Below are positions 40 to 1,044 of a DNA stretch of 9,806 nt, one piece after another. Under the pieces are notes generated by a model. The model worked only from the letters and a program-made list of their open reading frames with translations, made no database searches and had not been told where the DNA came from. This stretch comes from Escherichia coli (GTDB taxonomy: Bacteria; Pseudomonadota; Gammaproteobacteria; Enterobacterales; Enterobacteriaceae): the NCBI RefSeq assembly GCF_003334355.1, contig NZ_QOWP01000058.1. One strand, given 5' to 3'. The position numbers were made by a program, and so were the translations under genes. The stretch's first letter is position 1. Each line of letters opens with the position of its first letter.

Positions 40-1044
40 TTAATGATTTTTACCAAAATCATTAGGGGATTCATCAGGGCTGGGTTTGTTTTTATCAGCC
101 ACCAGTAGCAAGGTGCGGATGACTTGCGGATGGTTAATTTGTACCAGCAGACTGCCGCAATCTTCTTTATGGGCATACATCGCGAGGCGCGGAATGGCTG
201 CCAGTCCTTGTTCGCGCAAAAGGGCGGCGCAGGCCGCGTAGCCGAAGTGGTTTTCATGCGACATGTAGCTGGCTTCTCGATCGCTAAATATATCCTGGCT
301 CCAGTAGTGTTCGAGTTTTCTCACCGCTGTGGGGTCATTAGCAACAACTTTTAACCACTCCTTAGAATGAAAATGAGTTCGCGGGCATTCAAGGCCTACC
401 AACTCATTGGCTATTTCTGGTTTTTCCGGGAGGATCAGCGCAATAAAAGGGCGGCGAACTTTGGTTATTCCTGGTAGTGCGGCAATGAGTTTGTCGGCGC
501 AACGCTGCCAGCAGCTTTCCTCTGCCAGAGAGAGATGCTTACGCAGTCGGAGATCGAATTCGTTATAGGTTTCTGAGCGATAACCATAGCCATAATCCTC
601 GTCCTGATACTGCAATGTCACTACCAGAGGATCACTCTCATAACACCGCGCAATAAACTGGCGTGCAATCACCACCTCAGTCGCATATTCCAGCCCCTCT
701 TGTTGGACGATTTCGTCGAGCAACTGTTGGCTGTCATTTTGCGCGATACAGGCTAGCGCCGCCATTGTCTGGGCCGGGACTGAGGGTTTGTGTTCGCCGA
801 TCAAGTTGATGGCCTGCGTGATGGCGGACTGCCACTCCAGTGAAAAATTTTCATAACGCCAGACAATGTTTTTTTTCTTCTCAGCTTTTTGTAGCAATTC
901 ATCACCCAGTGTCTGAATGATGCTTTCAGTGATAACAGACACCGGTTCGCCCGGCCAATTGCGATGGCTGAGTGGCGTTTTGCCTTTTTTATATTTCAGT
1001 TCCAGTTGGGCGTTATCCGCCAGCCACGGTAATTCCTTGTCCAT
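40..1044 (-). CDS. yehI: MolR-paralogous protein without a WGR domain; probable 5-prime part of yehI (ORF closes after 334 codons, 39 bp from the window edge)
   Basis: ATG at 1044-1042, TAA at 42-40. Translation aligns along its whole length with residues ~117-450 of the adjacent 1264-aa protein (shared blocks LPWLA, LSHR.FPG.PV, SLEWQ, QEG.LEYAT, F.LRLRKHLSL.EES.WQ.CA.KLIAA.P, LPEKPEIA.E, EWLK.VA.D, INHP); roughly 40 percent identity by eye. Start lies 9 nt after the upstream stop with an AAGGAAAG Shine-Dalgarno. Symbol assigned from synteny (metG-molR-yehI) rather than from recognising the sequence. Confidence 0.6.
   Translation of the reverse strand: MDKELPWLADNAQLELKYKKGKTPLSHRNWPGEPVSVITESIIQTLGDELLQKAEKKKNIVWRYENFSLEWQSAITQAINLIGEHKPSVPAQTMAALACIAQNDSQQLLDEIVQQEGLEYATEVVIARQFIARCYESDPLVVTLQYQDEDYGYGYRSETYNEFDLRLRKHLSLAEESCWQRCADKLIAALPGITKVRRPFIALILPEKPEIANELVGLECPRTHFHSKEWLKVVANDPTAVRKLEHYWSQDIFSDREASYMSHENHFGYAACAALLREQGLAAIPRLAMYAHKEDCGSLLVQINHPQVIRTLLLVADKNKPSPDESPNDFGKNH

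Follow-up and report, generated by a model that had tools for sequence, protein, structure and literature searches.

A truncated yehI allele of Escherichia coli whose reading frame closes inside the outside end of IS10-Right

Insertional inactivation of genes by IS10 is well documented (PMC4574204, PMC10359306), and the revised consensus for the target of the element reads NRCNNNGYN (5′-NPuCNNNGPyN-3′) (PMC4574204). The chromosomal neighbourhood considered here has itself been described as the site of a mobile element, TnMB1860, which in sublineage L1a of E. coli ST131 interrupts the metG/DUF4132/yeh region (PMC9334617). Our literature search returned no paper on IS10 in yehI. The reference IS10/ISVsa5 is 1,329 bp long, and on plasmid R100 the transposase coding sequence of IS10-Right in Tn10 (annotated as ‘IS4-like element ISVsa5 family transposase’) begins 108 nt from the element end. 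Intact YehI is a protein of 1,210 aa, encoded by a gene of 3,633 nt in strain SC516, which agrees with the length of about 1210 aa that the first-pass annotation of this DNA had given. DUF4132 (PF13569) is the sole Pfam domain recognised in intact YehI, at about residues 954–1138 of 1,210.

The window, by which we mean the whole 9,806-nt stretch of E. coli DNA that was analysed, carries metG, apbC, yehE and yehD in the canonical E. coli order, together with molR, an intact paralog of yehI at 1054..4848 on the minus strand. The ORF list, the RefSeq annotation of strain PSS-12 and alignment all identify molR as the gene of a WGR and DUF4132 protein of 1,264 aa, and the RefSeq label in the near-identical PSS-12 locus is ‘WGR and DUF4132 domain-containing protein’. 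The intact state of molR here differs from that in K-12 (MC1061), whose copy is listed as a pseudogene, frameshifted and interrupted by an internal stop. Nine nucleotides separate the stop of the molR ORF from the start of the short yehI ORF, which occupies 40..1044 on the minus strand and runs for 334 codons from an ATG to a TAA at 42–40, with 39 nt of the window left past that stop; the codon count, the stop and the 39 nt are as the first-pass annotation had them. The identity of the gene as yehI follows from 322 of 322 matching residues and from the synteny metG–molR–yehI, which is identical to that of reference loci. The first-pass annotation had also described the short ORF as homologous to the central region of MolR; the homology holds (38% identity, E = 2e-56), while the aligned part is collinear with MolR residues 110–422, the N-proximal third of the protein just past the WGR region, rather than its centre.

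The reverse complement of window positions 1–1200 was compared with 5,426 complete E. coli genomes. Thousands of the matches showed 100% identity, and every one of these broke off at query base 1123, equivalent to position 78 of the window; the remaining 77 bases are a multi-copy sequence present on both chromosomes and plasmids in the same comparison. Codons 1–322 of the ORF (79..1044, minus strand) are native 5′ yehI, with 322/322 residues identical to intact YehI of SC516 and with DNA matches that end at 78, and the 966 nt of this native coding part carry no substitution or indel relative to intact yehI alleles. Base by base, the window follows intact yehI through ...AAACAAACCCAGCC, past which intact yehI reads TGCAACGTGTAGC... 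and the window reads CTGATGAATCCCCTAATGATTTTGGTAAAAATCATTAAG...; at the break the intact gene continues TGCAACGT... (Leu-Gln-Arg...), and its distal part includes ...TGCAACGTGTAGCTAAATACC.... Translation and alignment with intact yehI place codon 323, 11 IS10 codons and the TAA at 42–40 in the segment 40..78 (minus strand), with codon 323 itself split at the junction: its first base, C78, belongs to yehI and the other two, C77 and T76, to IS10. The tail of the 334-aa product that is read from IS10 is PDESPNDFGKNH*. What closes the yehI frame is therefore the inserted IS10 end that it enters at window position 77, and the first-pass annotation, which was right to call the allele truncated in that 322 residues of intact YehI are followed by IS10, had overlooked that the last 77 bases of the window in this direction, including the stop, belong to the element. 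By the refuting condition that it had named, a separate and unrelated gene downstream, the sequence past the break is a transposon end and not yehI in a shifted frame.

The identity of the 77 bases was established by comparison with known copies of the element. Window 1–77 equals, at 77/77 bases, the outer terminus that IS10-Right forms in Tn10 on R100, and has 4 mismatches to the IS10-Left terminus; at 1..32 on the plus strand Rfam gives a partial match to the antisense RNA of IS10, RNA-OUT (RF00240), in its 3′ half. Window 1–77 (minus strand) is therefore the outside end of IS10-Right (ISVsa5, IS4 family), of which it holds the terminal 77 bp at 100% identity to element ends. The RNA-OUT match covers model positions 39–70 of 70 and is 5′ truncated, with 35.2 bits and E = 8e-4, a score short of the gathering score of 41, as the 5′ half is cut away at the edge of the window; its orientation is that expected for IS10, and the match needs no annotation. 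Among plasmid records, a 100% identical element end was present in at least 2,715. The match begins at base one of the IS10-Right outside end, CTGATGAATCC, and the terminal sequence of that end (CTGATGAATCCCCTAATGATTTT...) is present in the window at 77/77 bases. In R100, Tn10 lies between two copies of a 9-bp duplication (CGCTCTGCC / GGCAGAGCG) that adjoin the element at an identical first base, the C of CTGATG, and this calibrates the boundary of the element. Past the window edge, the transposase gene would have the direction of yehI. RNA-OUT, and hence the promoter pOUT, is directed from IS10 into yehI in antisense, and any read-through from pOUT would be antisense to both yehI and molR.

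The sequence beside the element is that expected of an IS10 target. The 9 bp that adjoin it, AACCCAGCC (78..86, minus strand), lie directly beside the first base of IS10 and are presumably one copy of a target-site duplication; they fit the revised consensus NRCNNNGYN at 4/4 specified positions and the classical consensus NGCTNAGCN at 4/6. We hold it about 90% probable that an insertion of IS10-Right (ISVsa5) in codon 323 of a normal 1,210-codon yehI is the cause of the truncation. In this mechanism, a copy of IS10-Right would have transposed into codon 323 with its outside end toward the 5′ part of the gene, and translation would then proceed through 322 native codons, the junction and 11 IS10 codons to a TAA owned by IS10, yielding 334 aa. 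The window reaches 77 bp into IS10 and contains neither the transposase gene nor the inside end, and neither a second copy of the duplication nor distal yehI. For this far side we infer a simple insertion, in which the rest of yehI and the 9-bp duplication follow beyond the ∼1.3-kb element, with the inside end of IS10 and then AACCCAGCCTGCAACG expected there.

Other events that involve the same element could leave the same junction. IS10 and Tn10 promote adjacent deletions and inversions, and the truncation could reflect an IS10/Tn10-mediated rearrangement—an adjacent deletion, an inversion or recombination between IS10 copies—after which distal yehI, and possibly yehK and yehLMPQ, would have been deleted or moved. 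The window shows nothing past the IS end, and partial yehI remnants produced by deletion occur elsewhere (for example H138 and H139), both of which are compatible with such an event. The data hold no direct evidence in its favour, however, and AACCCAGCC fits the target consensus as it would in a primary insertion, an argument of little weight given that an adjacent deletion also uses a new target. We consider a rearrangement improbable. There is a slimmer chance that the element facing yehI is not a solo IS10 but a complete Tn10 with tetracycline resistance, turned with its IS10-Right end toward the gene. The outside end of IS10-Right also forms one terminus of Tn10, and in R100 that terminus is identical to the 77 bp; against this, the copy in the inspected E. 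coli chromosome example, STK78-E, is a solo ISVsa5/IS10, and many genomes have the end sequence in several copies. A complete Tn10 is a sub-case of the IS10-Right insertion and has an equal effect on yehI.

At its right end the window terminates in another insertion sequence. The left end of an IS1 of the IS1B type, GGTGATGCTGCCAACTTACTGAT..., occupies 9627–9806 on the plus strand and is 100% identical to the IS1B-type copy in PSS-12. The yehD ORF (9100..9648, plus strand) ends within this IS1, which sits three codons ahead of the yehD stop and converts ...VMRVAQD* to ...VMRVMLPTY*, so that the C-terminal AQD of the YehD fimbrial subunit is replaced by MLPTY and the protein has 182 aa rather than 180. 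In chaperone-usher subunits the extreme C-terminus has structural importance, so IS1 may impair yehD. IS elements thus bound the window at both ends, IS10 on the left and IS1 on the right, and 77 nt is a k-mer size commonly used by short-read assemblers. Taken together, the IS elements on both sides and the 77-nt overhang on the left suggest that the window may be a whole short-read contig broken at repeats, and this repeat-bounded character affects what can be concluded about synteny and gene content from the contig.

The same features bear on the idea that the junction arose as an artefact of assembly, by a chimeric join or at a graph tip in a repeat, and that yehI is intact in the organism. 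Both window ends do fall within multi-copy IS elements, and the left overhang is as long as a common assembler k-mer, yet genuine insertions also give contigs that end one k-mer into the repeat in short-read assemblies. The break falls exactly on the terminal nucleotide of the 1,329-bp element, where a random misjoin would strike either terminus with a probability of roughly 2 in 1,329, and it lies beside a target that fits the consensus. The combination of such a target with a break at the exact terminus disfavours a random assembly chimera, and we regard an artefact as very unlikely.

We then asked how the allele compares with yehI across the species. A 200-nt probe centred on the site was present in 5,320 of 5,426 complete genomes and was uninterrupted in all 5,320, and yehI is at least 80% of full length in 5,223 of the 5,426. 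When 60 records were sampled evenly down the ranking, yehI was one full-length piece in 58 and a deletion remnant in 2. Truncated yehI alleles are rare. The first-pass annotation had attributed the short ORF to a nonsense or frameshift mutation, or else to a genuinely short 334-aa paralog. Both are refuted: nothing beyond the shortness of the ORF itself speaks for either, the 966 native coding bases are unaltered relative to intact alleles, the stop codon lies inside IS10, and a full-length gene is the rule in the genomes just described. For a core-like gene of E. coli, yehI shows unusual divergence: measured against the SC516 allele, identity is at least 99% in only 61 records and 90–95% in 2,376.

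The exact yehI–IS10 junction was absent from all 5,426 complete E. coli genomes, and the exact 38-nt junction sequence had zero matches in both the GTDB representative genomes and the JGI metagenome contigs. The exact 334-aa product is not on record in public assemblies. The allele rests on a single sequence, because neither the junction nor the protein was found anywhere else in the collections searched. The closest backbone to that of the window is found in PSS-12, an isolate from human faeces, at 3 mismatches over 9,553 nt. Strains of the DH10B type are rich in IS10, and a K-12 backbone of this type was considered and rejected, as the window has 137 mismatches to MC1061 and its molR is intact.

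The consequences for the product were assessed at the level of domains. The 334-aa product keeps 322 native residues and lacks about 890 residues of the YehI C-terminus, and a Pfam scan run on this lost C-terminal segment placed DUF4132 at residues 633–817 of the segment. In the 334-aa product itself the Pfam scan found no DUF4132 and no significant Pfam domain. The ORF is a gene fragment rather than a functional member of the DUF4132 family. The product is most likely non-functional, and the allele is predicted to be null and polar on yehK. Searches for the role of the intact proteins gave little: YehI matched no NCBIfam family, MolR matched in NCBIfam at N-terminal residues 2–78 alone and far under the family cut-off, and neither protein matched a PADLOC defence-system model. 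No function of YehI or MolR was obtained from NCBIfam, PADLOC or the literature. The proper annotation of the 334-aa ORF is that of a yehI pseudogene fragment with an IS10 interruption, rather than that of a short paralog or a point mutant, and the IS-derived C-terminal tail should stay out of protein databases as YehI sequence. The strain can be flagged as carrying active IS10 and IS1, and the allele adds one more natural knockout of an evidently dispensable gene.

Compared with the YehI/MolR family of DUF4132 proteins of ∼1,200 aa, the locus is conventional in its arrangement, metG–molR–yehI–yehK, and in the 322 native residues of YehI, and it departs from the family in that the product is without the DUF4132 domain that defines it. 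The element has the same 77-bp terminus as IS10-Right/ISVsa5 of Tn10 in R100, although here it is known from that terminus only, and none of the collections searched contained an insertion at this site of yehI. The nearest parallel is strain STK78-E (NZ_CP162185.1), in which, as here, ISVsa5 lies in yehI in equal orientation and splits the gene into pseudogene fragments. The site in STK78-E is about 1.66 kb into yehI, in contrast to 0.97 kb here, and the abutting 9-mer, CGCTCCGCA, differs; for that reason the STK78-E insertion is an independent event. The same region of STK78-E (584–9890) carries an IS1 in molR, the ISVsa5/IS10 in yehI and another IS1 just past yehK. In K-12, yehQ is annotated as a pseudogene with an internal stop.

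Repeated insertion of mobile elements seems to be tolerated in the molR–yehI region. A stronger proposal, that loss of molR–yehI–yehK–yehLMPQ is repeatedly selected or at least freely tolerated, could cite IS10 here and in STK78-E, the IS1 in STK78-E molR, TnMB1860, and the K-12 molR and yehQ pseudogenes. If true, it could point to a costly, conditionally dispensable WGR/DUF4132 and MoxR–VWA system. Such anecdotal evidence cannot tell selection from neutral decay, and we consider the proposal unlikely. TnMB1860 in ST131 L1a resembles the present case in that a mobile element disrupts the neighbourhood and is tolerated in a successful lineage, and differs from it in being a large resistance transposon with blaCTX-M-15, whereas here the element is IS10 with no cargo visible. 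Alongside these systems, the yehI allele is a routine, strain-specific gene disruption and a new instance of a well-known type of event.
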